32,000 bases of DNA, taken from contig NC_010628.1 of NCBI RefSeq assembly GCF_000020025.1, positions 3,900,001 to 3,932,000 of the forward strand, given 5' to 3'. Under the pieces are notes generated by a model. That model searched no databases. It saw nothing but the letters and a program-made list of their open reading frames with translations, and had not been told where the DNA came from. Made by a program: the position numbers and the translations under genes. Shown here piece by piece: positions 16,441 to 32,000 of this stretch; position 1 is the stretch's first letter; each line of letters opens with the position of its first letter. This stretch comes from Nostoc punctiforme PCC 73102. Lineage in GTDB: Bacteria; Cyanobacteriota; Cyanobacteriia; Cyanobacteriales; Nostocaceae.

Positions 16441-19400
16441 AGATGAACACCCCAGAACGTACTGACCAGCTACGGCGGGCATTAGTCGCCCTAAAGGAAC
16501 TCCGCACCAAGCTTGATGCCATTGAACAGGATCGGCAAGAAGCGATCGCCATTGTCGGTATGGGATGCCGATTTCCCGGAGGAGTTAACAACCTCGAAAC
16601 CTATTGGCAATTATTGAGCCAAGGTATTGATGCTAGCCGGGAAATTCCCAGCGATCGCTGGTCGGTCGATAGCTTCTATACGCCTCATCCTGACACCCCT
16701 GGTAAAATGTACACCCGTCGGGGTAGCTTTATCGACCAAGTTGATGGCTTTGATGCCGATTTCTTTGGGATTGCGCCGCGAGAAGCAGTCAGTATAGACC
16801 CGCAACAGCGATTGTTGCTGGAAGTTGCCTGGGAAGCTTTAGAAAATGCCGGACAAAGCACAGAGAAATTAGAAGGTAGTGCCACTGGTGTATTTATTGG
16901 CATTTCCACCAACGACTACGCCCGCTTCCACATCAATAGCGGCGACCCCAATCGCATTGATGCTTACTCATTTATTGGTTGCACTCCCAGCGTAGTTTCT
17001 GGTCGTTTGTCTTACGTTTTTGGGTTACAGGGGCCAAGTCTCACCATAGATACAGCTTGTTCATCTTCCCTCACAGCCATTCACCTAGCTTGTGAAAGCT
17101 TACGCAAATGCGAGTGTAACTTGGCTTTGGCTGGTGGTGTCAACTTGATGCTGGCTCCAGAAACCACGATTTATTTTTGTCAGGTGAAAGCCTTAGCAGC
17201 AGACGGTCGCTGCAAAACCTTTGATGCTGCTGCCGATGGCTACGGACGAGGAGAAGGCTGTGGTGTCGTCGTACTCAAGCGTTTGCCGGATGCTTTAGCA
17301 GATGGCGATCGCATCTTTGGTTTGATTCGCGGTTCCGCCGTCAATCAAGACGGACGCAGCAACGGTATGACTGCCCCCAACGGCTCGGCTCAACAAGCAG
17401 TGATTCGCCAAGCATTAGCGGCGGCGGCAGTACAACCCCAGGAGATTGGTTATGTGGAAGCTCACGGTACGGGAACCGTCTTAGGCGACCCAATAGAGAT
17501 TCGCGCCTTAGCATCGGTACTTTGTGCTGACAGGAGTCAAGATAATGCATTAATTGTTGGTTCTGTCAAGACTAATATCGGACATTTAGAAGCTGCGGCT
17601 GGGATTGCTGGAATTATGAAAGTAGTTCTGGCTTTACAGCATCGACAAATTCCACCACATTTACATTTCAAACAAGCAAATCCGCATATCGATTGGCAGG
17701 AATTACCGTTAGTTATTCCTACTCAGCTTACTCCCTGGATTTCAGACCGACTGCTGGCTGGGGTTAGCTCCTTTGGGATGAGTGGGACTAATGCTCATGT
17801 GGTTTTGGAAGCAGCACCGGTTGAAGAGGACAAGGGGACAAGAGGACAAGGGGACAAGAGGAATGATGAAAGCGATCGCGTTTATCTTTTACCTTTGTCT
17901 GCTAGAAGCCCGGAGGCTCTCAAAGAAATAGCTAAAGCATACCGAGAATTGTTATCAGGTTCGCTAAAGCTTGAAGATATTTGTTATACAGCTAGTTTAC
18001 GGCGGGTTCATTACGAATATCGTTTGGGGTTAGTGGGAAATTCGGCGGAAGAATTAGCGAATCAACTTCAAGATTTCCTAGAAGATATTCCCAATTCTGA
18101 TGTTAATTGGGGATATCAAGGTTCTAGCCGTCGCCAGCAAATTGCCTTTGTGTTTTCTGGACAGGGTTCTCAATGGCTGGGTATGGGGCAAGAACTCTTG
18201 ACGCAGGAGCCTGTATTCCGGGAGGCTTTAGAAGAGTGCGATCGCATTATCCAATCTCATACGTATTGGTCGCTAATTGCCGAACTGTCCGCACCGCCAG
18301 AGAAATCCCGTCTGGATGAAACGGAAATCGCTCAACCTGCGATTTTATCTCTGCAAGTAGCACTAGTGGCGCTGTGGCGGGCTTGGGGTGTGGAACCAAG
18401 TGCAGTTGTAGGTCATAGCGTTGGGGAAATTACGGCTGCTTACGTGGCGGGTGTGTTGACTTTGGCAGATGCTTTGTGGATTGTGATACAACGTGCCAAA
18501 CTGATGCAGCAAGCAACAGGCCACGGCAAAATGGCAATGCTGCATTTACCAGAGAAAGCTGTGGCAGAACTGATTGCACCTTATGAAGACAAAATAGCGA
18601 TCGCAGCGATAAACAGTCCTTTTTCAACAGTCATCTCTGGTGCAATCGAGGCAATTGAAATTATCCTAGAAAAAGTCGAACAGCAAGGAGTATTCTGTCG
18701 CCGCTTACCAGTGAATTACGCTTTTCACTGCCCGCAGATGGACGGCTATAGTCGAGAATTAGAGAGAATTCTCGAAGATATTCAGCCAAAATCGCCATAT
18801 TTGCAGATTTTCTCCACCGTTAGCGGTCAACCAGAAGATTCGCCTCTGCCCCTTTGCGCCTCTGCCCCTCTGCCTCTTTTTGACGCTGCCTATTGGGGGC
18901 GGAATATGCGGCAATCTGTACGATTTGCCGAGGCAATGGATAGTCTGATCCAAGCTGGATACAACCTGTTTGTAGAGGTTGCCCCTCATTCTGTCCTCGC
19001 CAAAGATATGCTGGAGTGCCTCAGTCAGACTCAGCAGCAGGGAACAGTTTTACCAACCATGCGGCGAGGAGATTCCACAGTCAGCTTAAGGTCATTAGCC
19101 AAACTTTACACTTTAGGACATAAAGTTAACTGGGATAATTTCTATCCCAATGGTGGCAAATTTGTACAGTTACCGACTTATCCTTGGCAACGCAAACGCT
19201 ACTGGATTGAGCCAATACAGCCGAATGTTATTTCCACCACCGCTTCAGAATTATCAGATTGGCTGTACGAAATTCAATGGCAACCACAAGCATTATTAAT
19301 CAAACAGCAGACCATTGCTCCTACCCATTGGTTAATTTTTAGCGATCGCTCTGGCATCGGTGAAACCCTAGAACGCATACTACAAGCCCAAGGACACACC

Positions 19401-22400
19401 ACCACCGTACTTTACTGTACAGATGCATCTTGTACAGACGCGATTCATCGCGTCTCTAAAGTCTCCAACTTACAGATTGTCCATCTGTGGAGTTTGGATA
19501 ACACTGAACAGTTAGTTAATTGTGGTGGCGTACTAGACTTACTACAAGCCTTGGCACAAGTAGAATTACCAGCAGTCAAACTATGGCTAGTAACCCAAGG
19601 CGCACAGCCTGTAGGGGAAATTAGCAAAGAATTGGCGATTGCCGCTGCACCGCTTTGGGGTATAAGTCGAGTCATAGCAATGGAGTGTGCTGAAATCTGG
19701 GGAGGCATTATAGATATAGACCCAGCAAGCACTCTAGAGGAAGCGGCTAACTTACTAGCCGCCGAACTATCTCAATCAAAGAGCCAAGAAAATCAACTAG
19801 CTTTTCGCCAACAGCAACGTTATGTGGCTCGTCTAACGCGGACAGTTGCAATTGTATCAACCTCACCTTTGAGCCTCCGAACCGATAGCACGTACTTAAT
19901 TACAGGTGGATTGGGTGCTTTGGGATTACGGGTAGCCCATTGGTTGGTAGAAAGAGGCGCGCGTCATCTGTTATTACTCAGCCGTCGTCCTCCTGGAGAA
20001 CAAGCGCAAGCAGCTATTCAGGAGATGGAACAGGAGGGCGCACATATTCAGGTTGCCTTAGCAGATGTCACCAATCAAGCTGAACTTAGCACCATATTAC
20101 ACAACCTGAATTATCCCCTACGTGGCATTATCCATGCAGCAGGAGTATTAGACGATGGCATACTACTGCGACAAACTTGGGAACGGTTCGCCAAAGTCTT
20201 AGCTCCCAAAATCGATGGAGCTTGGAATTTGCATCTTCTCAGCCGCGACTGTGCCCTAGATTTCTTCGTCATGTTTTCGTCAGTGGCTTCTTTAATAGGC
20301 TCCCCAGGTCAAGGGAACTACGCCGCTGCCAATATGTATTTAGATATACTTGCTCATTATCGACGACATCAAGGCTTACCCGCTTTGAGTATCAATTGGG
20401 GACCTTGGTCAGATGTAGGTATGGCAGCTGATTTAAATCATCGCAACCTTTGGAGTACTGAGAACGGAGTTAGTTACATTACTCCAGAACAGGGATTGCG
20501 CGCCTTAGAAGAACTGCTCAAACAAGGGAAAACTCAAGCCGGAGTCGTACCGATCGCCTGGGATAAATTCTCTACAGCCGTGCAACTACCATTGTTGCAG
20601 CAACTTACTACCAAGGTAAGTCAATCACCATCTCAGCCCTTCTTACTACGGCAATTGGAATCTACACCAGTGAGCGATCGCCGGGAATTGCTGATGTCAG
20701 CCGTACAAGACCAAGTGGTAAGAGTGCTGAGGTTAGATAATAGCCGCCCCATCGACCCGGAACGCCCCTTGCAAGAAATGGGTATGGATTCCCTGATGGC
20801 GGTAGAATTGCGAAATACTCTCGGAAAGTTGGTAGATAAAACTTTACCCGCAGCTTTGATTTTTGACTATCCGAGCATCTCAAATTTGACAGAGTATTTA
20901 GGTAAAGAATTGGGGATATTTGCGACAACTGCATTACCGCCGACTGTGGAGAGTCGGGAACTATCACCTACAGAAGCGATTGCTGTTGTGGGGATGAGTT
21001 GTAGATTCCCTGGGGCAGATGATTTAGAGAGTTTCTGGCAACTCTTATGTAATGGTACAGATGCAATTCGAGAAGTACCGGGCGATCGCTGGGATGTAGA
21101 TGAATTTTACGATCCAGACTTGTCTTTTCCTGGGACGATGAATACTCGCTGGGGCGGCTTCATCAATAATATAGACCACTTTGACCCCCAATTTTTTGGT
21201 ATCTCTGCCAGCGAAGCCCGCAGCATGGATCCCCAGCAACGCCTACTCTTAGAAGTTTCCTGGGAAGCTTTGGAACACGCAGGCTATAGTTCCGAGCATC
21301 TGGCAGGTAGTCAAACAGGAGTATTCACAGGTATCAGCACTTGGGATTACTTCACACTACAACTAGACCCACCTCCACGGGGCGGTACAGGGATGGCTTT
21401 GAGTATTGCAGCTAACCGTCTTTCCTATCTCTTAGATTTGCGCGGGCCAAGCATGGCAGTTGATACGGCTTGTTCTTCTTCCTTGGTAGCGGTTGATTTA
21501 GCCTGTCAAAGCTTGCGGAACGGTAAATGCGATCTGGCATTAGCAGGGGGTGTAAATATCATCCTCTCACCATTAACTACCGTTGCCTGCTCCCAAGCGG
21601 GGATGATGGCTGCTGATGGACACTGCAAAACATTTGACCAGCGAGCTGATGGTTATGTCCGGGGAGAAGGCTGTGGCGTAGTCGTACTCAAACGTTTATC
21701 CGATGCTCTCAGAGATGACGACCATATTCTGGCTCTGGTGCGTGGTTCTGCTGTCAATCAAGATGGACGCAGCAATGGTTTAACTGCCCCTAATGGTTTA
21801 GCCCAACAAGCTGTAATTCGCCAAGCCTTACAAAATGCTGCCGTCACTCCCGACGGCATCAGTTACGTTGAAGCCCACGGTACAGGCACAGCTTTGGGTG
21901 ATGCCATTGAAGTAGAATCCCTGTGGACAGTACTCAAGGAAGGTCGCACTGACAATCAGCCTTGCCGGATCAGTTCTGTGAAAACTAATATTGGTCACTT
22001 AGAAGCAGCTGCAGGGATAGCTGGTTTCATTAAACTAGTGCTGTTGTTGCATCGAGAACAGATTCCTCCTCACCTCAACTTGCAAACTATCAATCCCGTG
22101 TTGAATTTGGAGCAAACCCAGCTACAAATTCCCACCTCCTTGCAACTGTGGAAACGAGGTGAGCAGCCGCGATTAGCGGGGATTAGTTCTTTTGGCTTTG
22201 GTGGGACTAACGTTCATGCAATTGTGGAAGAAGCACCCTTGGAGAAAGCAGGGGGAGCAGAGGAGCAGAGGAGCAGGGGAGAAGAAATTATAATTGAGCG
22301 TCCTTTGCATCTACTTACGCTGTCAGCAAAAAGTGAATCAGCTTTGCAAAACTTGATTGGGCGTTACCACCACTATTTACAGGAAAATACAGGCGATCGC

Positions 22401-23384
22401 TTGGCTGATATCTGCTATACCGCTAATATGGGACGTAGCCATTTTGCTCATCGTCTAGCATTTGTGGTCAATTCTCAGGCGCAGTTACGAGATACCCTTG
22501 CCGCTTTCAATGTAAGAGAAAAAAGTCCTGATGTACTGTACGGCAAGCTTGATACTCAACGCCAGCCAAAAGTTGCTTTTATTTTTGCTGGTGAAGGTTC
22601 GCAGTATGTTGGTATGGGTAAGCAGCTTTACAAAACCCAGCCGCAGTTTCGCTCAATTTTAGAAGATTGCGATCGCCTCCTACAACATCATCTTCAACAA
22701 TCCCTACTTGCAATCCTCGAAGATGAATCACTGTTAACACAACCCCGTTACGCTAGTCCTGCTGTATTCGCCTTGGGATACGCCTTAGCCCAACTTTGGC
22801 GCAGTTGGGGCGTACAACCTAGTGTAGTCATGGGTGGCGGAGTTGGTGAGTATATCGCCGCTTGTGTGGCTGGCGTGTTCAGTTTGGAAGATGGTTTGCG
22901 GTTAATTACTCAGCAGGAATCATGGGCAGAATTCGAGCCAATTGCCAAGCAGGTGAAATTTCAAGTGCCCCAAATTCCGATGGTGTCAACCTTCTATGGG
23001 CAACTGTTAGCTGCTGACTATATCCCAGATATTGACTACTGGAGACGATGCTGGCAAGCACCAGCGTTATTTAAAGGAGCAATGTTAGCCCTTACACAAA
23101 AAGGGTGCAATTTATTCTTAGAGATTGGCTCTGATCCCCAATTATCCGAGATCCAACAGCAAGGTACTTGGTTACAATCAATTGACGATTGGACAGTATT
23201 ATTACATAGCATGATTGCATTTTATATCAATGGTGTAGCAATTGATTGGCAAAAGTTTGAACAAGGATATCAGCGTTGTCGTGTGGTCTTGCCGACTTAT
23301 CCCTTTGAACGAAAGCGGTACTGGCTCGATCCGGCAGTTATCAGATCCTTTAGCAAAAAGGAGGAAAATTTATGCAACGAGTAG
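16437..23384 (+). CDS. bimodular type I polyketide synthase: KS-AT-KR-ACP-KS-AT* (terminal AT dead, no terminal ACP)
   Basis: ATGA overlap with the PKS2 stop. Module 3: KS Cys 'DTACSSSL' (17058-17060); AT 'GHSVGE' (Ser 18417-18419), 'YAFH'; KR 'TGGLGALG' (about 19902-19925) with an 'LDD' motif and 'NYAAAN'; ACP 'GMDSL' (Ser 20790-20792). Module 4: KS 'VDTACSSSL' (Cys 21471-21473), 'AHGTGT', 'NIGH'; then an AT remnant and 'YPFERKRYW'. The protein ends 18 aa later. Confidence 0.95.
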   Translation: MKMNTPERTDQLRRALVALKELRTKLDAIEQDRQEAIAIVGMGCRFPGGVNNLETYWQLLSQGIDASREIPSDRWSVDSFYTPHPDTPGKMYTRRGSFIDQVDGFDADFFGIAPREAVSIDPQQRLLLEVAWEALENAGQSTEKLEGSATGVFIGISTNDYARFHINSGDPNRIDAYSFIGCTPSVVSGRLSYVFGLQGPSLTIDTACSSSLTAIHLACESLRKCECNLALAGGVNLMLAPETTIYFCQVKALAADGRCKTFDAAADGYGRGEGCGVVVLKRLPDALADGDRIFGLIRGSAVNQDGRSNGMTAPNGSAQQAVIRQALAAAAVQPQEIGYVEAHGTGTVLGDPIEIRALASVLCADRSQDNALIVGSVKTNIGHLEAAAGIAGIMKVVLALQHRQIPPHLHFKQANPHIDWQELPLVIPTQLTPWISDRLLAGVSSFGMSGTNAHVVLEAAPVEEDKGTRGQGDKRNDESDRVYLLPLSARSPEALKEIAKAYRELLSGSLKLEDICYTASLRRVHYEYRLGLVGNSAEELANQLQDFLEDIPNSDVNWGYQGSSRRQQIAFVFSGQGSQWLGMGQELLTQEPVFREALEECDRIIQSHTYWSLIAELSAPPEKSRLDETEIAQPAILSLQVALVALWRAWGVEPSAVVGHSVGEITAAYVAGVLTLADALWIVIQRAKLMQQATGHGKMAMLHLPEKAVAELIAPYEDKIAIAAINSPFSTVISGAIEAIEIILEKVEQQGVFCRRLPVNYAFHCPQMDGYSRELERILEDIQPKSPYLQIFSTVSGQPEDSPLPLCASAPLPLFDAAYWGRNMRQSVRFAEAMDSLIQAGYNLFVEVAPHSVLAKDMLECLSQTQQQGTVLPTMRRGDSTVSLRSLAKLYTLGHKVNWDNFYPNGGKFVQLPTYPWQRKRYWIEPIQPNVISTTASELSDWLYEIQWQPQALLIKQQTIAPTHWLIFSDRSGIGETLERILQAQGHTTTVLYCTDASCTDAIHRVSKVSNLQIVHLWSLDNTEQLVNCGGVLDLLQALAQVELPAVKLWLVTQGAQPVGEISKELAIAAAPLWGISRVIAMECAEIWGGIIDIDPASTLEEAANLLAAELSQSKSQENQLAFRQQQRYVARLTRTVAIVSTSPLSLRTDSTYLITGGLGALGLRVAHWLVERGARHLLLLSRRPPGEQAQAAIQEMEQEGAHIQVALADVTNQAELSTILHNLNYPLRGIIHAAGVLDDGILLRQTWERFAKVLAPKIDGAWNLHLLSRDCALDFFVMFSSVASLIGSPGQGNYAAANMYLDILAHYRRHQGLPALSINWGPWSDVGMAADLNHRNLWSTENGVSYITPEQGLRALEELLKQGKTQAGVVPIAWDKFSTAVQLPLLQQLTTKVSQSPSQPFLLRQLESTPVSDRRELLMSAVQDQVVRVLRLDNSRPIDPERPLQEMGMDSLMAVELRNTLGKLVDKTLPAALIFDYPSISNLTEYLGKELGIFATTALPPTVESRELSPTEAIAVVGMSCRFPGADDLESFWQLLCNGTDAIREVPGDRWDVDEFYDPDLSFPGTMNTRWGGFINNIDHFDPQFFGISASEARSMDPQQRLLLEVSWEALEHAGYSSEHLAGSQTGVFTGISTWDYFTLQLDPPPRGGTGMALSIAANRLSYLLDLRGPSMAVDTACSSSLVAVDLACQSLRNGKCDLALAGGVNIILSPLTTVACSQAGMMAADGHCKTFDQRADGYVRGEGCGVVVLKRLSDALRDDDHILALVRGSAVNQDGRSNGLTAPNGLAQQAVIRQALQNAAVTPDGISYVEAHGTGTALGDAIEVESLWTVLKEGRTDNQPCRISSVKTNIGHLEAAAGIAGFIKLVLLLHREQIPPHLNLQTINPVLNLEQTQLQIPTSLQLWKRGEQPRLAGISSFGFGGTNVHAIVEEAPLEKAGGAEEQRSRGEEIIIERPLHLLTLSAKSESALQNLIGRYHHYLQENTGDRLADICYTANMGRSHFAHRLAFVVNSQAQLRDTLAAFNVREKSPDVLYGKLDTQRQPKVAFIFAGEGSQYVGMGKQLYKTQPQFRSILEDCDRLLQHHLQQSLLAILEDESLLTQPRYASPAVFALGYALAQLWRSWGVQPSVVMGGGVGEYIAACVAGVFSLEDGLRLITQQESWAEFEPIAKQVKFQVPQIPMVSTFYGQLLAADYIPDIDYWRRCWQAPALFKGAMLALTQKGCNLFLEIGSDPQLSEIQQQGTWLQSIDDWTVLLHSMIAFYINGVAIDWQKFEQGYQRCRVVLPTYPFERKRYWLDPAVIRSFSKKEENLCNE
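17826..17865 (+). repeat. in-frame 8-nt tandem array (GAGGACAA/GGGGACAA x 5) at the KS3/linker boundary
   Basis: Read directly: gaggacaa ggggacaa gaggacaa ggggacaa gaggaatg. Encodes 'EDKGTRGQGDKRN'. Confidence 0.85.
18841..18880 (-). repeat. 8-nt tandem array in reverse orientation (CCCCTCTG-type x ~5) inside the AT3 domain
   Basis: Read directly: cgcctctg cccctttg cgcctctg cccctctg cctctttt. CCCCTCTG is the reverse complement of CAGAGGGG, a cyclic permutation of the GGGGCAGA unit at 15879-15886. Encodes 'SPLPLCASAPLPLF'. This makes the loop between 'TVSG' and 'YW' about 9-10 aa longer than in AT1 and AT2. Confidence 0.8.
22252..22283 (+). repeat. in-frame 8-nt tandem array (GGGGAGCA/GAGGAGCA x 4) at the KS4/linker boundary
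   Basis: Read directly: ggggagca gaggagca gaggagca ggggagaa. Encodes 'GGAEEQRSRGEE'. Followed by 'IIIERPLHLLTLSAK'. Confidence 0.85.
22570..23330 (+). other. degenerate acyltransferase remnant (AT0) plus post-AT linker at the C-terminus of PKS3
   Basis: 'GQGSQ' becomes 'GEGSQ'. Active-site 'GHSVGE' becomes 'GGGVGE' (22833-22850; nucleophilic Ser and preceding His both Gly). By-eye alignment to AT2 shows roughly 90 aa missing between 'LRLITQ' and 'FEPIAKQVKF', including the small subdomain and the HAFH motif. Confidence 0.8.
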
Positions 23385-24598
23385 GAATTGAGAAAATTAA
23401 TTTATACGCTGGTCGTTTCTGTGCTGATGCCCTGGAATTAGCTAATTTACAAGGTAAAGATTTGGATTACGTGTCTAAACAAGTAAAAGTAAAGACACGT
23501 TCTGTAATTCCTGCCTACGAAGATACAGTTACCTTATCGGTGAATGCAGCCAAGCGCCTCCTTTCCCCAGAAGATGCGCGGGATATCGAATTGTTGATTG
23601 TGGCAACGGAATCGGCTGTGGATTTTGGCAAACCTGTATCTACTTGGGTACATCGGTATTGTAATTTACCTCCCCATTGCCGTAGCTTTGAACTCAAACA
23701 CGCCTGCTACGGGTTGACAGCAGCCGTCAAAACAGCAGCAATGTGGCTGCAAGGAGGACTTACCCCTGGTAAAAAGGCATTAGTTATCGGCTGTGACTAT
23801 AGCCGTCCTCACCTTGATGACCGTGATAATTTTATTGGCGGTGGTGCAGCTATTGCTATGCTGATTAGTACCGATCCCAAGGTATTTGAAATTGACTTGC
23901 ATCCCGCAGGCTTTTGGACTAATGAAATTTCTGATACCTTCCGTCCGACTGCGAGAGTTGAAATTGGCGACAATCAAACCAGTCTTTACTCTTACTTAGA
24001 TGCTTTGGAAGCCTCTTACACCCACTACGAAAAACTTGTGGGGGGAGTAGATTATGACAAGGATTTCCAAAAACATATTTATCACACACCCTTTCCGGGA
24101 ATGCCCTTACAAGCGCATCGGACTTTGCTGAGTTTATTAGAAGTTAACGACTCGAAAATCTATGAGGAGAATTATCAAAAAAAGGTACAAGAAGGCATTT
24201 ACTTCGCCCAGCAGGTAGGTAGTACTTATGGCTCATCTACATTCTTATGTTTGCTAAGTTTGTTACACTATGCCCAGGATTTACACGCAGGTGATCGCAT
24301 TTCGATTTTTGCCTATGGTTCTGGTTGTCAAGGTGAATTTTATCGCGGCACTGTCAGTCCGGGTGCAATTGAATACATCCGTTCTTTGGATATTGACCGT
24401 CATTTGCAAGAACGTTTGCCATTATCTCTGATGGAATACGAACTTTTGGAATACGCACGAGAAAAATATATTGATGCGCCTGATTATCAACCCAAAAGAG
24501 ACAGTTTCCAAAACGCTTATGACAAACTCTATGCCGGACAGGAACTGTTGGTATTAAAACAGGTAAAAAATTACTACAGGCAATACGAATGGAGCTAA
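23372..24598 (+). CDS. HMG-CoA synthase-like beta-branching enzyme (HCS; PksG/CurD family)
   Basis: 408 aa. Catalytic Glu in 'VATESAVDFGK', Cys in 'LKHACYG' (codon 23705-23707), His in 'IYHTPFPGM'. Start ATG 23372 follows GGAGGAAAA and overlaps the PKS3 stop by 13 nt. Confidence 0.93.
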   Translation: MQRVGIEKINLYAGRFCADALELANLQGKDLDYVSKQVKVKTRSVIPAYEDTVTLSVNAAKRLLSPEDARDIELLIVATESAVDFGKPVSTWVHRYCNLPPHCRSFELKHACYGLTAAVKTAAMWLQGGLTPGKKALVIGCDYSRPHLDDRDNFIGGGAAIAMLISTDPKVFEIDLHPAGFWTNEISDTFRPTARVEIGDNQTSLYSYLDALEASYTHYEKLVGGVDYDKDFQKHIYHTPFPGMPLQAHRTLLSLLEVNDSKIYEENYQKKVQEGIYFAQQVGSTYGSSTFLCLLSLLHYAQDLHAGDRISIFAYGSGCQGEFYRGTVSPGAIEYIRSLDIDRHLQERLPLSLMEYELLEYAREKYIDAPDYQPKRDSFQNAYDKLYAGQELLVLKQVKNYYRQYEWS

Positions 24599-25398
24599 AG
24601 TTAAAAGCAATTGAGTATCAAATAGATTCAGGAGTCGCTCACATCACATTATCAGCACCAGAAACTGGTAATGCTTTGAACGGCGAGATGTTGGGACAGT
24701 TTTATCAAGCTTTGCAAAATGCGATCGCTAACCCAACTTGTCGAGTTATTGTAATTTCTAGTATAGGCGCTGACTTTTGTACAGGGATGGACTTTAACGC
24801 CATCTTTGCCAATGGTTCCCGTCCTGATTTAGCGCCACTGCATGCCTTTCGTGATTGTCTGTTACTAATTTATAGTTCTCCTAGACCAGTCATAACCTGT
24901 GTGACAGGTAATGTTACAGGTGGTGGCGTGGGTATAGTCGCTGCATCCGACATCGTACTCGCCGAGGAAAATGTTCTATTCATGCTGTCAGAAGTGCTGG
25001 TGGGGATGATTCCTGCTGTAATTACGCCCTTTTTATTGTGTCGTCTTTCCTCCTCCCAGGTGAAATATCTCACTCTTAGTTCTAGAGGTATTGATGGAAA
25101 CGAAGCCAAAAATTGGGGACTGGTGGACGAAATTGCTAGTGATGGGATGAACGATACACTCAACCGCCAGATTCAACGTTTATTCTATTCTTCACCGGAA
25201 GCGATCGCCGAAAGCAAACAATATTTTGACACATTTATCGGTCAAGATTTGCGACACCAAACCGAATTCGCCATGCAACGCCTACAGAAATGGTTAGAAC
25301 AACCCCAAATTACCACAGCCATCCATCAGTTTAGTGAAGGCTATTCACCACCCTGGTTTCAAAAATATAGGAGGAATAGCACTAATTATCCAAAATAA
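24589..25398 (+). CDS. enoyl-CoA hydratase/crotonase-fold protein, ECH1 (dehydratase of the beta-branching cassette)
   Basis: Crotonase-fold N-terminus ('GVAHITLSAPETGNALNGEM...GADFCTGMD') and 'VTGNVTGGGVGIVAASDIVLA'. It sits immediately after the HCS (10-nt overlap) and before the PksI-like ECH2. The ECH1 assignment rests on cassette order and on not matching the ECH2 pattern. Confidence 0.82.
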   Translation: MELKLKAIEYQIDSGVAHITLSAPETGNALNGEMLGQFYQALQNAIANPTCRVIVISSIGADFCTGMDFNAIFANGSRPDLAPLHAFRDCLLLIYSSPRPVITCVTGNVTGGGVGIVAASDIVLAEENVLFMLSEVLVGMIPAVITPFLLCRLSSSQVKYLTLSSRGIDGNEAKNWGLVDEIASDGMNDTLNRQIQRLFYSSPEAIAESKQYFDTFIGQDLRHQTEFAMQRLQKWLEQPQITTAIHQFSEGYSPPWFQKYRRNSTNYPK

Positions 25399-25463
25399 GC
25401 CTACAAATATAAAACTAGATTCTGACTCTCTTAATTACGAACTCCGAATTACAAATTAGTATT

Positions 25464-26210
25464 ATGTCCGAAATTGTAACTCTTTCATGTTTAGAAGATG
25501 GGATTTATCAAATCAATTTAAATGATCTACAAAACGATAATCAACTCACAGATGAGTTAGTTGATATTTTTTTAAAAAAAATAGCAGAATGCGCTAAAAA
25601 TCCTCATTTAAAGGTATTGTTAATAACAGGTCTTCCTAAGATTTTTTGTGGTGGTGCTAGCTTAGATGTACTGCAAAAATTGCTGCGTGGTGACACAGAA
25701 GTTAAAGACCTCTTACTACCAACAGAACTATTACGGTTTCCCGTTCCCGTAATCGCAGCAATGGAAGGACATGCCGTAGGAGGCGGATTATTAATTGCCT
25801 TATGTTGCGATGTAATTATAGCCGCACAAGAAAGTCGTTATGGCGTGAATTTTGCTGGATTAGGATTTACCCCTGGCATGGGAACAACATCTTTACTTCC
25901 ATCATTAGTCGGTCCATTATTCGCCCATGAAATGATCCTCACTGCCAAACTTTACAAAGGTAGAGAACTACAGGGAAGAGGACTATTTAATGATGTCGTC
26001 CCCAAACAACAAGTCATAGAAGTAGCGATGGATATCGCCCGCAACATTGCCGAAAAACCCAAGCACGTATTGGAAATGGTCAAGGATACTTTGGCACTTC
26101 CCCGCCAACGTGCTTTACAAGAGGCTATGTCTCGCGAACATCTAATGCATACTGTATGTTTTAATCATCCAGATACTCAATCTATTGTCAAAGATATGTA
26201 TATTTCCTAA
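25464..26210 (+). CDS. crotonase-fold decarboxylase, ECH2 (PksI / CurF-N-terminal type)
   Basis: 'FCGGAS', 'VPVIAAMEGHAVGGG', 'GFTPGMGTT', 'AEKPKHVLEMVKDTL', 'EHLMHTVCF'. These closely follow the pattern I recall for B. subtilis PksI. Confidence 0.85.
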   Translation: MSEIVTLSCLEDGIYQINLNDLQNDNQLTDELVDIFLKKIAECAKNPHLKVLLITGLPKIFCGGASLDVLQKLLRGDTEVKDLLLPTELLRFPVPVIAAMEGHAVGGGLLIALCCDVIIAAQESRYGVNFAGLGFTPGMGTTSLLPSLVGPLFAHEMILTAKLYKGRELQGRGLFNDVVPKQQVIEVAMDIARNIAEKPKHVLEMVKDTLALPRQRALQEAMSREHLMHTVCFNHPDTQSIVKDMYIS

Positions 26211-26269
26211 TAATAACAGTAGATTTTATCAGCGTTTAATTATTCTTTTTGGAGATTAGGAGAAAAATC

Positions 26270-26533
26270 ATGGTGCAACAAACAGTTGAGCAACAAGTCC
26301 TGAATGTAGTTACCAAACACATGCGCTTGAACATTGAAGGTTTAGAAAATGCAAACATCGATCCAACAAAGTCAATGCGCGATTTGGGTGCTACCAGTTT
26401 AGATGCAGTAGAGATTGCCTCAGCTTCGATGAGAGAGTTAAAAGTGAAAGTTCCTAGAACCAAACTCGGCAGTGTTAAGAACATTCAAGAACTTGTAGAC
26501 TTACTTGCTGAAATCAAAATACAGCAAGGGTGA
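26270..26533 (+). CDS. free-standing acyl carrier protein (ACP-B), HCS-cassette donor-ACP type
   Basis: ATG 26270 follows AGGAG (26259-26263); the track's TTG 26249 is less likely. 'DLGATSLDAVEI' (Ser codon 26396-26398) and 'KVKVPRTKLGSVKNIQELVDLL' resemble the 'LGxxSxxRAEI...KIPRxEL...KNIGEL' pattern I recall for AcpK/CurB-type donor ACPs. Confidence 0.8.
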   Translation: MVQQTVEQQVLNVVTKHMRLNIEGLENANIDPTKSMRDLGATSLDAVEIASASMRELKVKVPRTKLGSVKNIQELVDLLAEIKIQQG

Positions 26534-26626: not shown

Positions 26627-29600
26627 ATGAAGAACACTAAACAACAATACAACAAGGAAGCGATCGCTGTTATTGGTATGGGATGCCGATTTCCTGGGGC
26701 AAAAAATCCTGCTGCTTTCTGGCAAATGTTGCGGGATGGGATGAATGCTATTACACAAGTTCCCGCCAATCGTTGGTCAATGGATGACCTCTACGACCCA
26801 GATTTGGCGACCCCTGGAACGATGAATAGCCGTTGGGGAGGGTTTCTGCAAAATGTAGACCAGTTTGATGCTAAATTCTTCGGCATTTCTCCCGGTGAAG
26901 CCGCAAGTACAGACCCGCAGCAGCGTTTGTTACTAGAGGTAGCTTGGGAGACTTTAGAAAATGCTGGTTTAAATCCGCAACAAGTTTCAGGAAGTCAAAC
27001 AGGAGTATACATAGGCATTGGTAGCAACGATTATGCCAATGTTTGCTTTGAGGATTTGACTCAACTAAATGCTTATTTTGTGACAGGCAATGCCCTCTGT
27101 ACAACAGTGAATCGCCTGTCTTACTTCTTTGGTTGGCAAGGGCCGAGTCTGGCATTAGACACTGGCTGTTCTTCATCCCTGGTTGCCATCCATCTTGCCT
27201 GCCAAAGTTTGCGAACAAGAGAAATTGACCAAGCTTTGGTAGGGGCTGTTAACCTGATTTTGTCACCCAAAGCTAACATCGGATTATCCCAAGCTTGGAT
27301 GATGACATCAGATAATTGTTGCAAAAGTTTTGATGCGGCGGCTGATGGTTACGTGCGGGGTGAAGGTTGCGGTTTAGTTTTGCTCAAGCGTCTAGAAGAT
27401 GCCATTAGGGACAAAGACCGGATTTTAGGGATTATCCGGGGTTCAGCCGTTAATCAAAATGGCTTTGGGAAAAACTTGACTGCACCCAATCAACTAGCAC
27501 AGCAGTCAGTTATCAGTCAGGCGTTGGCAAATGCTGGAGTTGAACCACAACAAATTAGCTATATTGAAGCCCACGGAGTCGGCACACCCTTGGCTGATGT
27601 GACGGAAGCCAGCGCCCTTAAAGCAGTCTTGCGGCCAGAGGGGGATACTCTACCGTGTTTTCTCAGTTCCGTCAAAACCAACATTGGACATTTAGAACCG
27701 GCTGCGGGAATTGCTGCTTTAATTAAAGTTTTACTGTGTTTCCAACACCAAGAAATTCCACCACACCTTCATTTTCAAACCCTAAATCCAGATATTGGCG
27801 ATGATTTTCCCTTTATCATTCCCACCACAGCAAGTCCTTGGGAATTGAACAATACACCTCGTTTGGCTGGAATTAATTCCTTTGGTTTGGGGGGAACTAA
27901 TGCCCATCTTGTTTTAGAAGAACCACCATTGGAGAGAGCAGAGGAGCAGGGGAGCAGGGGGACAGAGGAGCAGAGGAGCAGAGGAGGAGAAAATACAATT
28001 GAGCGTCCGTTACATTTGTTGACGCTATCAGCTAACAGTGAAAAGGCATTACGAGAATTAGCTAATCTTTATAATACACATATTGCTAAATCTGTCAATA
28101 TTTATTTGCCAGATATTTGCTACTCAGCAAATATAGGTAGAGCAGCTTTGAAACACCGCTTGGCTATACTGGTGGATACATTTGAAAGCTTGCAACAAGA
28201 ATTATCAGCCTTCGCCAGTGAACAAGAGGCGGGAGAATGGTTTTATGGTCAACAGAACTCTATTAAAGTTGGATTCTTGTTTACAGGACAAGGAACACAA
28301 TACATTGATATGGGTCGTGAACTCTACGATACACAACCTGTATTTCGTGAGGTACTGGAACGTTGCGATCGCCTACTCACCCCTCATTTAAATAAGTCGT
28401 TATTATCAATACTTTATCCTGAATCTGGTAGCAAACTATTACTACACGAAACCGCTTACACCCAACCTGCTTTGTTTGGCCTAGAGTTCGCCTTAGCAGA
28501 AATGTGGCGTTCCTGGGGAATCAAGCCGTATTGTGTTATGGGCTACAGCTTAGGTGAATATGTCGCTGCTTGTGTTGCGGGCGTTCTCAGCTTGGAAGAT
28601 GCCTTAATTTTAGTAGCAAAGCGGGGGCAACTGATGCAGCAGTTACCGCAAACTGGGGCTATGGCTTGGGTATATACCTCAATAGACAAAGTAATAACAG
28701 TACTCTTGCCATATCAGCATCAGGTTGGTATCGCTGCCATCCACGGCCAAGAAGAAATCTTGATTGCTGGTAAAAGTCAAGCTGTGCAGCAAATTCTCCA
28801 ACAGTTGAAAAGTGAGGGCATAGCTTTTCTCAAGCTGAAGATAAATCAAGCCTTTCACTCTCCAGCCGTCGAGCCAATATTGGATGCAATGGAGGAACTT
28901 GCTGCCACATTCACCTACAACCCACCGCAGATAAATTGGGTTTCTAGTGTGACTGGAAAATTAGTGGAGGCGATCGCACCCCAACATTGGCGTAATCATC
29001 TCCGAGATACATTACAATTTTCAACGGCAGTTGATACCCTAATTGCTCAAGGTTGTAACCTGTTCCTGGAATTAGGGCCGAGTTCGACCTTAGCGGAAGC
29101 AGGTAAGCGATATCGACCCCAAAGTGAGGAAATTTGGTTATCTTCTCTGAAAGAAGGATTTGAGGATTGGCAGCAGGTATTATCAACACTGAGTGCCTTG
29201 TATGTACAGGGAGCAAATGTTAACTGGGCAGGATTTGACCACAATTACCAACACCAACGCCTAGAACTACCAACTTACCCTTTCCAAAGAAAGCGCCATT
29301 GGATAGACGCAAGAACGCAAAGACCGGAGATAAATTTTGTAGGGACGCGAAATTTGGCATTTCCACTGTGGGAAAACTTGAATTTAGAGGAGATGTCAGC
29401 TAGTCAGCGTTGGGAAAAACTGCAAGCCTACGTGCAAACTGAGGCAGCAACTGTTCTGGGACTGGAACCGACAGAGAAACTCGACCCAAACGAGGGATTT
29501 GCTACCTTGGGGATGAAATCTCTAATGGCAATTGAGTTAAAAAACCACATTCAAACGCAACTAGGACATTCTTATTCCCTAGCCGCTACCTTGGCATTTG

Positions 29601-32000
29601 ATTATCCCACAATTACCACGCTCACAGAATATTTGGGTAGGGAAGTCCTAAATTTAGATTCTCCCTCTACTAACCATGAAAATCTCCCCCAATCTTGTAA
29701 AGACGCGATTAATCGCATCTCTACTGAAGATATTGCCATTATTGCGATGGGTTGTCGCTTTCCTGGAGGTGCAAATAATCCCGAACAGTTCTGGCAAATC
29801 CTCCAAAAAGGTATCGATGCTATTACAGAAATTCCCTCGCAACGCTGGAACTTGGATAATTACTTTGACTCAGAGCCAGAAACACCAGGTAAAATGTACA
29901 CCCGTCACGGAGGATTTATTGCAGACATTGACCAATTTGACGCGCAGTTTTTCGGTATCAGTCCCCGTGAAGCCATCAGCCTCGACCCACAACAACGCAT
30001 ACTGTTAGAAGTAAGTTGGGAAGCTTTAGAAAATGCGGCTATTGCACCACAGAATCTTGTAGGAAGTCAGACAGGTGTGTTCATTGGTCTGATTTCCAAC
30101 GAGTATATGCAACTGCAAATTCAGCACAAAGACCCAGAAAAAATTGATGCTTATTACGGTACAGGCGGTATTGGTAGTGCAGCGGCAGGGAGGATATCTC
30201 ATAGCTTGGGGCTGCGCGGGCCTAGCTTGGTAGTGGATACTGCTTGCTCGTCCTCGCTGGTTAGCATTCATTTAGCAGTTCAAAGCCTGCGACGTGGAGA
30301 GTGCAATTTAGCATTAGCGGGTGGCGTAAACTTGATACTTCTGCCGGAGACGAATATTTTCTTATCAAAATCCAAGGCTGTAGCTGCCGATGGACGCTGT
30401 AAAACCTTTGATGCTTCAGCTAATGGCTTTGTTCGAGGAGAGGGATGTGGTGTAGTTGTATTGAAACGACTCTCTGAAGCTTTAGCTGATAATGACCCAA
30501 TCTTGGCTGTAATTCGGGGTTCAGCAGTGAATCATGATGGACGTAGCAGTGGTTTTACCGTCCCCAGTACAACAGCGCAACAAGAATTGTTACATCAAGC
30601 ATTAGCTAACGCCAATGTAGAAGCCCAGCAGGTGAGTTATATCGAAGCTCATGGGACTGGCACATCCTTGGGAGATCCGATTGAGGTTGGTGCATTAGCA
30701 TCTGTACTCTGTGCAGGACGTTCTTTTGAACAGCCACTAGTAATTAGTTCCGTTAAAACTAACATTGGTCATTTGGAAGCAGCGGCTGGGGTAGCGGGTT
30801 TGATGAAGGTTGTTTTGGCTCTACAGCATCAAGAAATTCCGCCACACTTGCACTTGCAACAACCTAATCCGATGATTGCTTGGGAGCAATTGCCATTGAG
30901 TGTCCCTACATCTGGGCAATCTTGGGTAGTTAAGGACTCGGCGCGGATTGGTGGGGTGAGTTCTTTTGGGATGAGTGGTACTAATGCTCATGTGATTGTG
31001 CAGGAAGCACCTTTGGGGGGAGCAGGAGAGCAGGGGAACAGGGGAGCAGAAATTACAATTGAGCGTCCTTTACACTTACTCTGCCTTTCTGCTAAACATT
31101 CCAATTCCTTGCGACAATTAGCTGAACAATACATCGACTATTTGGGCAAGCATGGCGATATTTCTTTGGCTAATATTACCTACACTGCCCAAGTCGGACG
31201 TTCTCATTTTTCTCATCGTTTGGCTGTTATTGCCTCATCTCATGCCGAGATGCAAGCAAAGCTGGAGGAAGCAGAGTATGACTATCAAGTAGATAGTGGA
31301 AATTTCACCAGATGCGCCTTTTTATTTACTGGGCAAGGGTCGCAGTATGTAGGGATGGGAAGACAACTGTATGAAACCCAACCTGGTTTTCGTCGGATAT
31401 TAGATGAATGCGATCGCATTCTCCAACTTTTCCTCAACAAATCCATCCTATCAGTCATCTTTGCTGACACCACAGAAAATCCACTCCTCGACCAAACTGC
31501 CTACACTCAACCAGCTTTATTTGTCTTAGAATACGCCTTGGCGCAACTGTGGATTTCTTGGGGTATCCGTCCCTCTGCGGTGCTTGGCCACAGTGTCGGA
31601 GAATATGTGGCTGCTTGTGTGGCTGGTATTTTCTCCCTTGAGGACGGATTGAAATTGATTGCCCACCGCGCCCGCCTGATGCAGGCATTACCGCAAACAG
31701 GAGGTATGGCTGCGGTTTTCGCCAGCGCAGAAGTTGTAGAACCCTTGATTGCATCCTATCCTCAACAACTCAGTATTGCTGCGTATAACGGAGAACAAAG
31801 TTTAGTTATCTCAGGCGAGATGCAGGCATTAACAGCAGTTTTGCAAAAACTAGAAAGTCAAAGCATCGAAACGCGAATTTTGCAAGTATCTCACGCCTTC
31901 CACTCGCCGTTAATGGCATCAATGTTGGCAGAGTTTGAGCAAGTTGCCCAGCAAATTGCCTATCATTCCCCACAACTGGAAATCGTTTCTAATGTTAGTG
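26627..32000 (+). CDS. modular type I polyketide synthase, 3'-partial: KS-AT-ACP-KS-AT...
   Basis: Not in the ORF track because no stop is reached. I translated it by hand from ATG 26627 to nt 32000 and found no stop. Module 5: 'IAVIGMGCRFPG', KS Cys 'DTGCSSSL' (27167-27169), 'AHGVGT', 'NIGH'; AT 'GQGTQ', 'GYSLGE' (28541-28558), 'QAFHS' (28847-28861); ACP 'GMKSL' (Ser 29519-29521). Module 6: 'IAIIAMGCRFPGG', KS Cys 'DTACSSSL' (30245-30247), 'AHGTGT', 'NIGH'; AT 'GQGSQ', 'GHSVGE' (Ser 31592-31594), 'HAFHS'. Confidence 0.93.
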   Translation, partial: MKNTKQQYNKEAIAVIGMGCRFPGAKNPAAFWQMLRDGMNAITQVPANRWSMDDLYDPDLATPGTMNSRWGGFLQNVDQFDAKFFGISPGEAASTDPQQRLLLEVAWETLENAGLNPQQVSGSQTGVYIGIGSNDYANVCFEDLTQLNAYFVTGNALCTTVNRLSYFFGWQGPSLALDTGCSSSLVAIHLACQSLRTREIDQALVGAVNLILSPKANIGLSQAWMMTSDNCCKSFDAAADGYVRGEGCGLVLLKRLEDAIRDKDRILGIIRGSAVNQNGFGKNLTAPNQLAQQSVISQALANAGVEPQQISYIEAHGVGTPLADVTEASALKAVLRPEGDTLPCFLSSVKTNIGHLEPAAGIAALIKVLLCFQHQEIPPHLHFQTLNPDIGDDFPFIIPTTASPWELNNTPRLAGINSFGLGGTNAHLVLEEPPLERAEEQGSRGTEEQRSRGGENTIERPLHLLTLSANSEKALRELANLYNTHIAKSVNIYLPDICYSANIGRAALKHRLAILVDTFESLQQELSAFASEQEAGEWFYGQQNSIKVGFLFTGQGTQYIDMGRELYDTQPVFREVLERCDRLLTPHLNKSLLSILYPESGSKLLLHETAYTQPALFGLEFALAEMWRSWGIKPYCVMGYSLGEYVAACVAGVLSLEDALILVAKRGQLMQQLPQTGAMAWVYTSIDKVITVLLPYQHQVGIAAIHGQEEILIAGKSQAVQQILQQLKSEGIAFLKLKINQAFHSPAVEPILDAMEELAATFTYNPPQINWVSSVTGKLVEAIAPQHWRNHLRDTLQFSTAVDTLIAQGCNLFLELGPSSTLAEAGKRYRPQSEEIWLSSLKEGFEDWQQVLSTLSALYVQGANVNWAGFDHNYQHQRLELPTYPFQRKRHWIDARTQRPEINFVGTRNLAFPLWENLNLEEMSASQRWEKLQAYVQTEAATVLGLEPTEKLDPNEGFATLGMKSLMAIELKNHIQTQLGHSYSLAATLAFDYPTITTLTEYLGREVLNLDSPSTNHENLPQSCKDAINRISTEDIAIIAMGCRFPGGANNPEQFWQILQKGIDAITEIPSQRWNLDNYFDSEPETPGKMYTRHGGFIADIDQFDAQFFGISPREAISLDPQQRILLEVSWEALENAAIAPQNLVGSQTGVFIGLISNEYMQLQIQHKDPEKIDAYYGTGGIGSAAAGRISHSLGLRGPSLVVDTACSSSLVSIHLAVQSLRRGECNLALAGGVNLILLPETNIFLSKSKAVAADGRCKTFDASANGFVRGEGCGVVVLKRLSEALADNDPILAVIRGSAVNHDGRSSGFTVPSTTAQQELLHQALANANVEAQQVSYIEAHGTGTSLGDPIEVGALASVLCAGRSFEQPLVISSVKTNIGHLEAAAGVAGLMKVVLALQHQEIPPHLHLQQPNPMIAWEQLPLSVPTSGQSWVVKDSARIGGVSSFGMSGTNAHVIVQEAPLGGAGEQGNRGAEITIERPLHLLCLSAKHSNSLRQLAEQYIDYLGKHGDISLANITYTAQVGRSHFSHRLAVIASSHAEMQAKLEEAEYDYQVDSGNFTRCAFLFTGQGSQYVGMGRQLYETQPGFRRILDECDRILQLFLNKSILSVIFADTTENPLLDQTAYTQPALFVLEYALAQLWISWGIRPSAVLGHSVGEYVAACVAGIFSLEDGLKLIAHRARLMQALPQTGGMAAVFASAEVVEPLIASYPQQLSIAAYNGEQSLVISGEMQALTAVLQKLESQSIETRILQVSHAFHSPLMASMLAEFEQVAQQIAYHSPQLEIVSNVS
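27933..27988 (+). repeat. in-frame 8-nt tandem array (GAGGAGCA/GGGGAGCA x 7) at the KS5/linker boundary
   Basis: Read directly: agagagca gaggagca ggggagca gggggaca gaggagca gaggagca gaggagga. Encodes 'RAEEQGSRGTEEQRSRGGE'. Followed by 'NTIERPLHLLTLSAN'. Confidence 0.85.
29693..29720. repeat. dispersed palindromic repeat, copy 2 (reverse orientation), inside the ACP5-KS6 linker coding sequence
   Basis: TCTTGTAA+AGACGCGATTAATCGCATCT. The reverse complement matches copy 1 at 19/20 core positions and 7/8 positions of the TACAAGA flank. Translated in frame as 'SCKDAINRIS'. Confidence 0.8.
31017..31048 (+). repeat. in-frame 8-nt tandem array (GGGGAGCA-type x 4) at the KS6/linker boundary
   Basis: Read directly: ggggagca ggagagca ggggaaca ggggagca. 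Encodes 'GGAGEQGNRGA'. Followed by 'EITIERPLHLLCLSAK'. Confidence 0.85.

Follow-up and report, generated by a model that had tools for sequence, protein, structure and literature searches.

The β-branching cassette of Nostoc punctiforme PCC 73102 appears to belong to a KS-AT-type family that lacks a Cys-to-Ser ketosynthase

Introduction

β-Branching cassettes are a main route to the methyl, vinyl-chloride and cyclopropyl side groups of polyketides, and they are targets for engineering. In the textbook form of the cassette, a ketosynthase (KS) whose active-site Cys is changed to Ser (hereafter KS^S) is required to make the acetyl donor. Here we analyze a cassette that would give a polyketide a methyl-type side branch, in a 32,000-nucleotide stretch of the chromosome of Nostoc punctiforme PCC 73102 (contig NC_010628.1, positions 3,900,001 to 3,932,000; "the window" denotes this whole stretch, and all genes named in it lie on the + strand). 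In this cassette an HMG-CoA synthase-like protein (HCS), the paired enzymes ECH1 and ECH2 and a free-standing acyl carrier protein (ACP-B) lie between two polyketide synthases (PKSs), the first of which ends in a KS joined to a dead acyltransferase (KS4-AT4) and the second of which opens with an atypical KS (KS5). Judged by gene order, domain content and HCS similarity, the region belongs with the KS-AT-type HCS cassettes of crocacin (CroD-CroH) and haliangicin (HliL-O, HliC and HliP).

The canonical cassettes, exemplified by curacin (CurB-CurF), bacillaene (AcpK/PksF-I), thiomarinol and virginiamycin M, share with the window homologous HCS, ECH1 and ECH2 proteins and a free ACP of the CurB/AcpK type. 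They differ from it in having a free-standing Cys-to-Ser KS and in their gene order, which is ACP-KS-HCS as against HCS-ECH1-ECH2-ACP in the window; tandem acceptor ACPs are absent from the window.

A cassette of the type seen here has already been published for crocacin and haliangicin, and the window HCS itself is cited in the haliangicin paper. In the haliangicin cluster of Haliangium ochraceum, hliL, M, N, O and C were assigned to a β-methyl branching cassette, with HliL annotated as 'PKS (KS-AT)' of 950 aa (PMC4768178; Sun et al., 2016). Supplementary Fig. S13 and Table S2 of that work present HliL, a KS-AT with Cys-His-His, as a candidate to replace the absent KS^S, and the paper gives CroD of crocacin as precedent (Mueller et al., 2014). 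Table 1 of the same work lists the window HCS, under YP_001866566, as the top BLAST match of HliM, and N. punctiforme window proteins (HCS, ECH) as the best matches of HliM, HliO and HliC. HliP was described as KS-ACP-KS-AT-DH-KR-ACP, and the structure of haliangicin was explained with one extension between HliT and the second HliP module. A sequence-only reading of the window had considered its arrangement to be unreported among cis-AT systems; that claim of novelty falls, as the same cassette (HliL, HliM, HliN, HliO and HliC) and its CroD precedent are in print.

Composition of the cassette

The positions of the genes and domains are collected in Table 1. The best PDB matches of HCS are CurD (4e-75), VirC and PksG. 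ECH1 scores 165 bits on the PksH-like model NF005498, under its cutoff of 250, and ECH2 scores 330.5 bits on the PksI-like model NF005496, for which the cutoff is 215. ACP-B can be aligned over its whole length with CurB, AcpK and the other donor ACPs, and CurB is its best PDB match (8e-11, with fatty-acid-synthase ACPs at about 5e-4). On a hidden Markov model (HMM) made from seven canonical donor ACPs it scores 66.6 bits, against 31.8 bits on a modular-ACP HMM, the median score of modular ACPs on the donor model being 9 bits; on NF005502 it reaches 56 bits, under the cutoff of 79. The protein is well conserved across phyla (consensus ...YGASSLDIVEIVSxxMRELKIKVPRTELAxLKNIxELVDLF), and it is 70% identical to its ortholog on L007, a distant cyanobacterial contig, compared with about 50% for modular ACPs. 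By these comparisons ACP-B is predicted to be a donor-type ACP. The Trp 'flag' of acceptor ACPs is absent from both ACP-B and the ACP of the following PKS (ACP5); as the flag is not universal, we gave this no weight. Right behind the small ACP, four other loci carry a free-standing enoyl reductase (ER) of the ADH_zinc_N type (L008, at 13019-14032, L013, L027 and L028), which presumably reduces the branch olefin there; the N. punctiforme cassette has none.

Upstream of HCS, KS4 retains Cys and both His in its condensation motifs, no ACP follows AT4, and the end of PKS3 overlaps the start of HCS by 13 nt. AT4 is extensively damaged: GEGSQ stands in place of GQGSQ and GGGVG in place of GHSxG, the Arg that binds malonyl is gone, and about 82 residues, comprising the small subdomain and the AFHS His motif, have been deleted from its interior. 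The linkers that flank it on either side, KS-AT and post-AT, are nevertheless retained, and a dead AT within the KS-AT didomain is also found in L007 and L010. Relative to its L007 ortholog, KS4 shows 77.5% identity, compared with 71.5% for KS3, 70.2% for KS5 and 64.8% for KS6, while AT4 shows 45% with indels. KS4, the most conserved KS of the cluster in this comparison, is probably under strong constraint, and AT4 appears to have decayed yet to have been kept as a scaffold. On the PksF-type model NF005490, whose cutoff is 445 bits, KS4 reaches 131.6 bits, as against 949 bits on a type I PKS model, and its identity to genuine KS^S proteins is 26-30%; on these grounds KS4 is not a KS^S. The sequence-only reading had described these elements in the same terms (HCS, ECH1, ECH2 and a donor-type ACP; an intact KS4 with its Cys at 21471-21473, a dead AT, no following ACP and the 13-nt overlap), and all of them hold. 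Its description of the cassette as non-canonical holds equally, the HCS, the ECH pair and the donor ACP being present and a KS^S absent. In a close relative, Nostoc sp. ATCC 53789 (L053, 5783-6988), PKS3 is annotated as two proteins, of 1979+ aa and 401 aa, with the break between KS4 and the linker/AT4 part; this is either a frameshift or a true split that leaves the AT remnant as a separate protein.

The KS-AT proteins end, after the post-AT linker, in a peptide of the form W-L-[DE]-P-x-E-[IM]-[KR]-[ST]-[YF] that is conserved across phyla. It reads WLDPAVIRSF in the window, WLEPHEIKSY in A. panamensis and WLEDHEMRPF in CroD, and it is present in L007, L008, L013, L019, L027, L031, L032, L036, L041 and L049 and missing from a Nostoc clade typified by L018. 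This peptide may serve to dock ACP-B, HCS or KS5.

A further point, beyond those raised by the sequence-only reading, concerns the start of PKS4, which opens with an atypical KS5 (DTGCSSS, HGVGT, no docking helix) followed by AT5 and ACP5. Only 12 residues precede the KS, and KS5-AT5-ACP5 has no reductive domains. ACP5 scores 94.8 bits on the modular-ACP HMM and 2.1 bits on the donor-ACP HMM. The non-elongating KS0-ACP modules of trans-AT systems resemble the KS5-type domains in that Cys is kept, HGTGT is degenerate, often by His to Gln, the AT is usually missing and the ACP feeds the next module. The window differs from them: the system is cis-AT, the HGTGT motif of KS5 keeps its His and has Val for Thr, and the cognate AT is present with Ser, Arg and His. 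AT5 is predicted to be the only catalytically plausible AT for the ensemble of KS4, ACP-B, KS5 and ACP5. Its GYSLG motif has Tyr where GHSxG has His, a change common to the N. punctiforme group, L007 and the Prochlorococcaceae L036, three lineages that are far apart; with Ser, Arg and the AFHS His kept, this suggests a functional AT with an odd feature.

Search for a Cys-to-Ser KS

To define the missing component, we used five genuine KS^S proteins from plasmid-borne canonical cassettes, which have the active site GGASASG and HGSGS, HGTGS or HGSAS motifs. No free-standing KS was found in the window, where open stretches of 150 codons or more have all been assigned, and a tblastn search of the window with the five KS^S proteins matched nothing but the six modular KS domains (21-30% identity). 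The absence of a free-standing Cys-to-Ser KS, on which the sequence-only reading had built, is thus upheld by both the survey of open reading frames (ORFs) and the tblastn search. That reading had named a KS^S encoded just outside the window as the observation that would overturn it; none turned up in the flanks, which were searched for 4.5 kb before the cluster in N. punctiforme assemblies and for 10 kb beyond ACP-B in two closely related members of Nostoc. Likewise, none was found within ±10 kb of HCS in the roughly 29 KS-AT-type loci described below. In a protein search with a Nostoc KS^S, none of the named matches among the best 120 of 2589 came from N. punctiforme.

In a neighbor-joining (NJ) tree of 82 KS domains with 60 bootstraps, the KS^S set lies on a long branch apart from all modular KS domains, KS4 included (60/60), and this is the sole robust result of the tree. 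The idea that the KS4-type and the KS5-type domains each form one clade travelling with the cassette was rejected, as the NJ bootstraps gave it no support.

In the PLSDB gene table, which is incomplete, the HCS gene of L044 (the bae cluster on Bacillus velezensis pDMB05-1) comes immediately after acpK, without an intervening pksF-like KS.

A family of KS-AT-type cassettes in five phyla

Loci were gathered as HCS relatives with their contigs and by a scan with an HCS alignment, taking one genome per species, and were then domain-mapped. About 29 loci besides those of N. punctiforme share the KS(-AT), HCS, ECH1, ECH2 and ACP arrangement: about 26 of the 32 genome-scan loci, together with L007, L008 and L010. 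The cyanobacterial carriers are Nostoc, Microcoleus, Westiellopsis, Amazonocrinis, Anthocerotibacter and a Prochlorococcaceae metagenome-assembled genome (MAG, L036); the others belong to Chloroflexota, Acidobacteriota, Actinomycetota (Solwaraspora, Micromonospora) and Myxococcota, which with Cyanobacteria makes five phyla. The shared order runs from an upstream module ending in an ACP through a KS(-AT) without ACP, HCS, ECH1, ECH2, a small ACP and at times an ER to a KS5-type KS, rarely with an AT, joined to an ACP, and then to the next module. A KS with altered HGTGT followed by an ACP is present in nearly all loci with enough downstream sequence. The window HCS is 46-77% identical to the HCS proteins of these loci, compared with 31-40% to those of the plasmid-borne canonical cassettes.

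The two KS positions are wired differently. Free-standing KS4-type proteins mostly carry a coiled-coil-like N-terminal extension of about 38 aa (e.g., ...YxxLMKNALLELxxxQSKLxxxEQAKTEPIAIIG), the exceptions being L027, with 7 aa, and L031, with 31 aa and no clear coiled coil; the remaining KS4-type domains, like that of the window, immediately follow an ACP within the same protein. KS5-type proteins have 5-22 residues before the KS. In A. panamensis a docking tail is found on the upstream PKS and on the KS5-type KS-ACP protein, and a docking helix stands at the start of the next PKS. With KS4 fused or docked to the upstream ACP and KS5 without a helix, the chain would therefore enter at KS4 and leave from ACP5.

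The module before KS4 contains a ketoreductase (KR), a dehydratase (DH) with KR, or DH-ER-KR in the window, L007, L008, L013, L015, L017, L019, L032, L034, L036, L041 and crocacin; wherever it can be seen, this module is a reducing one, with a single Nostoc clade as the exception. Because that module is reducing, the β-keto acceptor would have to be made after it.

In the KS5-type domains examined the Cys is invariant (100%) and HGTGT is never canonical. The motif is HGVGT in the window, L007, L015, L032, L034 and L035, HGVGS in L008 and L036, QGTGT or QGTGS in L017, L019, L023, L027 and L028, QGSGS and similar in the L018 clade, HGSGS in L040 and HGAGS in L041; the His of HGTGT has been replaced by Gln in at least nine lineages, L029 among them. 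An AT is missing beside most of these domains. An invariant Cys with a dispensable first His fits the signature of a transacylating KS; decarboxylating KS domains (KS^S and KSQ) have the reverse.

The two AT positions complement each other. Where AT4 is dead (the Nostoc group, L007 and L010), an AT5 with GYSLG is found wherever downstream sequence is visible, L010 ending too early; where AT4 is active (A. panamensis and most others), AT5 is usually absent, and L036 has both.

A second Nostoc cluster carries the same cassette (L018, L020-L022, L024-L026, L030 and L042). The order in the L018 type is FAAL-ACP-KS-AT-cMT-ACP, KS-AT, HCS, ECH1, ECH2, ACP, a 372-aa protein, a radical SAM protein, KS(QGSGS)-ACP and FAAL-ACP-TE.

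Comparison with crocacin and haliangicin

The crocacin cluster of Chondromyces crocatus (L049) resembles the window in that an ACP-less KS-AT with Cys-His-His lies directly before HCS, two ECH proteins and a small CurB-like ACP, with no KS^S. Its genes run from CroC, a KS-AT-DH-KR-ACP protein that ends in a docking tail, through CroD (KS-AT, with DTACSSS and HGTGT), HCS, ECH, ECH and CroH to CroI, which begins C-A-PCP; no KS5-type KS-ACP is present. The C. crocatus HCS is 51% identical to that of the window, and CroH, a member of the ACP-B family with 83 aa, aligns with ACP-B over the whole length of both. The two systems differ in that CroD is a free-standing protein of 930 aa that begins with a docking helix and has an active AT (GHSVGE), whereas the KS-AT of the window is fused and its AT dead, and in that a nonribosomal peptide synthetase C domain follows the crocacin cassette where the window has KS5-AT5-ACP5.

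The structure of crocacin is informative here. It is a 3-methyl-2,4-dienamide, crocacin C being 7,9-dimethoxy-3,6,8-trimethyl-11-phenylundeca-2,4,10-trienamide. The crocacins are reported to bear an (E,E)-dienamide (PMC10094535). CroC would form the 4,5-double bond, and one further malonate extension would be needed to supply C1-C2 and, at C3, the keto group on which the methyl branch is then built. Because crocacin has no KS5-type KS-ACP, only CroD plus CroH could carry out an extension after CroC, and the C domain would take the chain from CroH. Crocacin thus speaks for chain extension by the KS-AT didomain, with the acceptor held on the CurB-like ACP.

In haliangicin a KS-AT with Cys-His-His likewise stands in place of KS^S, and the next PKS opens with an extra KS and then an ACP, as PKS4 does. 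It differs from the window in that the Hli genes are scattered, with HliC apart, HliL is free-standing and HliP lacks an AT beside its first KS, where PKS4 has retained AT5; the Hli proteins were compared by their published description only. Among the features that define the CroD/HliL type, the window has the ACP-less Cys-His-His KS(-AT) directly before HCS, the gene order, and an HCS closer to the KS-AT type; it lacks a functional AT in the didomain, for which AT5 is the likely substitute.

Genes around the cassette

The start of the cluster (1-10738) holds a free-standing AprA_N/winged-helix/MT2-like methyltransferase, PKS1, a type II thioesterase, a small ACP and the E1alpha, E1beta and E2 genes. 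The set looks like an unusual starter supply, in which a C2 or acyl unit from a 2-oxoacid would be transferred to an ACP and possibly then methylated. The 76-aa carrier ORF at 7410-7640 sits between the thioesterase and E1alpha and falls below the default length of the ORF list. An 83-aa ORF at 6153-6404 on the + strand is hydrophobic, matches no ACP model and is probably no ACP; if it is what the sequence-only reading called 'ACP-A', that label was misplaced, the small ACP beside E1/E2 being the one at 7410-7640. The same reading had considered these genes, which resemble pyruvate dehydrogenase (PDH), as a source of the acetyl donor, for which we found no comparative support: no such genes were seen within ±10 kb of the other cassette loci, on a domain map that did not query E1/E2. 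Because of this the E1/E2 set is placed outside the branching machinery, and it more likely serves starter-unit supply.

In the protein records HCS is ACC81623/WP_012409604, and PKS1, PKS2 and PKS3 are ACC81614, ACC81621 and WP_083782404. Identity of the window with the pks1 (nvl/ncl) cluster of Krumbholz 2022 was ruled out, that cluster containing tetronate-type genes. Literature searches with the accession numbers and locus tags of the cluster, and for pks2-4 of N. punctiforme, returned nothing specific.

Table 1. Genes and domains of the window, with positions numbered from its first nucleotide.
Feature	Position	Strand	Domains, motifs and remarks
AprA_N/WH/MT2-like protein, 3' part	1-1185	+	full length 594 aa in L050 (617-2401)
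PKS1	1285-6132	+	KS-AT-KR-ACP
Type II thioesterase	6627-7394	+	
76-aa ACP	7410-7640	+	PF00550, 24.3 bits (cutoff 20.8); motif NWNSMAH
E1alpha, E1beta, E2 of 2-oxoacid-dehydrogenase-like complex	7661-10738	+	
PKS2	10816-16440	+	KS-AT-DH-KR-ACP
PKS3	16437-23384	+	KS-AT-KR-ACP-KS4-AT4 (dead)
ACP3 of PKS3, ordinary modular ACP fused directly before KS4	20700-20900	+	PP-binding, aa 1422-1488; GMDSL 20781-20795
KS4, modular ketosynthase, Cys-His-His intact	20973-22241	+	starts EAIAVVGMSCR; DTACSSS 21462-21482 (Cys codon TGT 21471-21473); EAHGTGT 21870-21890; KTNIGH 21981-21998
KS-AT linker, then AT4 remnant	22242-23036	+	AT4 remnant about 22572-23036
Post-AT linker and PKS3 C-terminal tail, without ACP	23037-23384	+	WLDPAVIRSF 23322-23351
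HCS, HMG-CoA synthase-like (3-hydroxy-3-methylglutaryl-ACP synthase)	23372-24598	+	PF01154, PF08540
ECH1, cassette dehydratase	24589-25398	+	Pfam ECH_1
ECH2, cassette decarboxylase	25464-26210	+	ECH_1
ACP-B, free-standing CurB/AcpK-type carrier	26270-26533	+	GATSL
PKS4	26627 onward	+	KS5-AT5-ACP5-KS6-AT6...; 2850 aa in longer contig L001
PKS4 N-terminus and KS5	26627-27946	+	DTGCSSS 27158-27178; HGVGT 27566-27586; NIGH kept
AT5	28262-29176	+	GQGTQ; GYSLG 28541-28558; Arg kept; QAFHS
ACP5, modular-type ACP fused before KS6	29414-29626	+	GMKSL 29510-29524
KS6-AT6, ordinary extending module	29729-32000	+	continues past window end

Discussion

The comparison leads us to favor, at a probability of roughly 0.45, a scheme in which KS4 and ACP-B form a split module, branching takes place on ACP-B, and KS5 hands the chain on to ACP5. 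A β-hydroxyacyl chain would pass in cis from ACP3 to the Cys of KS4, a transfer for which the wiring is seen. Because AT4 is dead, malonate would be placed on the free ACP-B in trans by AT5 of PKS4, and acyl-KS4 would then condense with malonyl-ACP-B to give β-ketoacyl-ACP-B, as the wiring and the crocacin cluster suggest. On ACP-B, HCS would add the acetyl-derived C2 unit, ECH1 would dehydrate and ECH2 would decarboxylate the product. The weakest step is the supply of the donor: acetyl-ACP-B would most likely arise from a second malonyl-ACP-B decarboxylated by unacylated KS4, along the lines of the 'bifunctional KS' idea in the literature, though HCS may instead use malonyl-ACP-B directly. 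KS5 would finally lift the branched chain off ACP-B and onto ACP5, probably as a non-extending or gatekeeping KS, a hand-over that we infer because its positional homologs have lost the HGTGT His and the AT; ACP5 would feed KS6 in cis. In vitro, CurD took an acetoacetyl-loaded CurB-type ACP as acceptor, about 3-fold less efficiently than its natural acceptor (PMC11522927), so a dual donor and acceptor role for ACP-B is chemically reasonable. One of the two models of the sequence-only reading had this core, and the comparative evidence favors its split KS4-AT4/ACP-B module and its branching on ACP-B, though not the PDH-like acetyl donor that went with them.

Several observations weigh against this scheme. 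By its similarity ACP-B would stem from donor ACPs, so that the conservative assumption is a donor role only, and KS5, which retains Cys and both His and has AT5 and ACP5 to itself, might equally form an ordinary module that extends the chain. Clean formation of acetyl-ACP by a Cys-intact KS is unsupported, and an acyl-loaded KS4 would condense and not just decarboxylate. In the tree, the KS4-type domains form no supported clade (3/60 bootstraps), nor do the two KS5-type groups unite (0/60; group A 34/60, group B 49/60). Because the tree is without support at these points, orthology of KS4-type and of KS5-type domains across phyla is by position. The KS-AT of the L018-type loci has NIGN for NIGH (Cys-His-Asn) and follows a non-reducing module, while its docking helix is kept; the didomain may be non-extending in this clade, and the family may be mechanistically non-uniform. 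Finally, literature searches found no biochemical study of the mechanism of CroD/HliL or of CylE/CylF.

The published hypothesis, put forward for HliL and CroD in PMC4768178 (Supplementary Fig. S13 and Table S2) and identical in substance to the other model of the sequence-only reading, has KS4-AT4 only replace KS^S by turning malonyl-ACP-B into acetyl-ACP-B, with ACP-B as donor only, KS5-AT5-ACP5 as the extending module and β-ketoacyl-ACP5 as the HCS acceptor. It leaves the donor and acceptor roles as they are in canonical cassettes, agrees with the CurB/AcpK-like character of ACP-B, and draws on a KS5 with Cys-His-His, an apparently functional AT5, a modular ACP5 and the lack of reductive domains in that module. 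A Cys-intact KS4 is, however, joined covalently behind ACP3, and most of its free-standing homologs bear upstream docking helices where the KS5-type proteins bear none; a KS4 that is acylated by ACP3 and binds malonyl-ACP-B would be expected to condense the two. In L017 and L019, moreover, the KS5 homolog has Gln for the HGTGT His and no AT and follows a reducing module, so that it cannot extend there, and crocacin branches with neither KS5 nor ACP5. We therefore rank this hypothesis below the split module and regard it as unlikely. The crocacin cluster and the KS5-type signature also bear on a scheme with the canonical role for every part, in which KS4 carries out its extension in trans on ACP5, KS5 takes the part of a KS^S and makes acetyl-ACP-B, and ACP-B is a donor only. 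The absence of a docking helix suits an enzyme acting on a free ACP, and the relaxed KS^S motifs (HGSGS, HGTGS and HGSAS) resemble the HGSGS of L040, the HGAGS of L041 and the HGVGS of L008. The KS5-type domains, however, keep Cys and often lose the first His, where KS^S and KSQ do the reverse, and crocacin branches without KS5 or ACP5, which together make this scheme very unlikely in our view.

Extension by both KS domains in the Nostoc lineage, with the ACP-B intermediate branched and KS5-AT5-ACP5 then adding a malonate whose unreduced β-keto group would pass to KS6, draws on a KS5 that keeps Cys and both His, on an AT5 that keeps Ser, Arg and the AFHS His, and on the conservation of GYSLG in Nostoc, L007 and L036; no product structure constrains the number of modules. 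The retention of AT5 is nonetheless no sign of extension by KS5, because AT5 is needed anyway to replace the dead AT4. Since HGTGT is altered in every KS5-type domain and the authors of the haliangicin study need a single extension between HliT and the second HliP module, we consider a second extension distinctly unlikely. An ordinary Cys-to-Ser KS elsewhere in the N. punctiforme genome could also make acetyl-ACP-B in trans, KS4 and KS5 then being ordinary or vestigial. We give this hardly any credence: the flanks searched above, around HCS in the roughly 29 loci, upstream of the cluster and downstream in close relatives, hold no KS^S, and a trait common to the family across five phyla is unlikely to rely each time on an unlinked gene.

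The split module would lead to a broader and more tentative proposal for the family, which we regard as possible, with the odds against it: no dedicated decarboxylating KS takes part, one free CurB-like ACP serves as extension carrier, HCS acceptor and acetyl donor, and KS5-ACP5 is an obligatory re-entry adaptor. With a single ACP in these roles, the donor would come either from unacylated KS4 or from HCS decarboxylating malonyl-ACP-B on the enzyme. If true, the single ACP and the re-entry adaptor would constitute a new β-branching logic for cis-AT PKSs and would revise the published assignment of CroD and HliL.

A second type of cassette without KS^S is thus found in at least five phyla, where it had earlier been mentioned only in passing for two myxobacterial pathways. 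For genome mining, a missing KS^S is no sign of an incomplete cassette, and for structure prediction an ACP-less KS-AT adjoining HCS should be counted as a probable module. N. punctiforme PCC 73102 is genetically tractable, and its fused KS4, dead AT4 and live AT5 separate the functions involved, which makes it a good system in which to test how cassettes of this type work.

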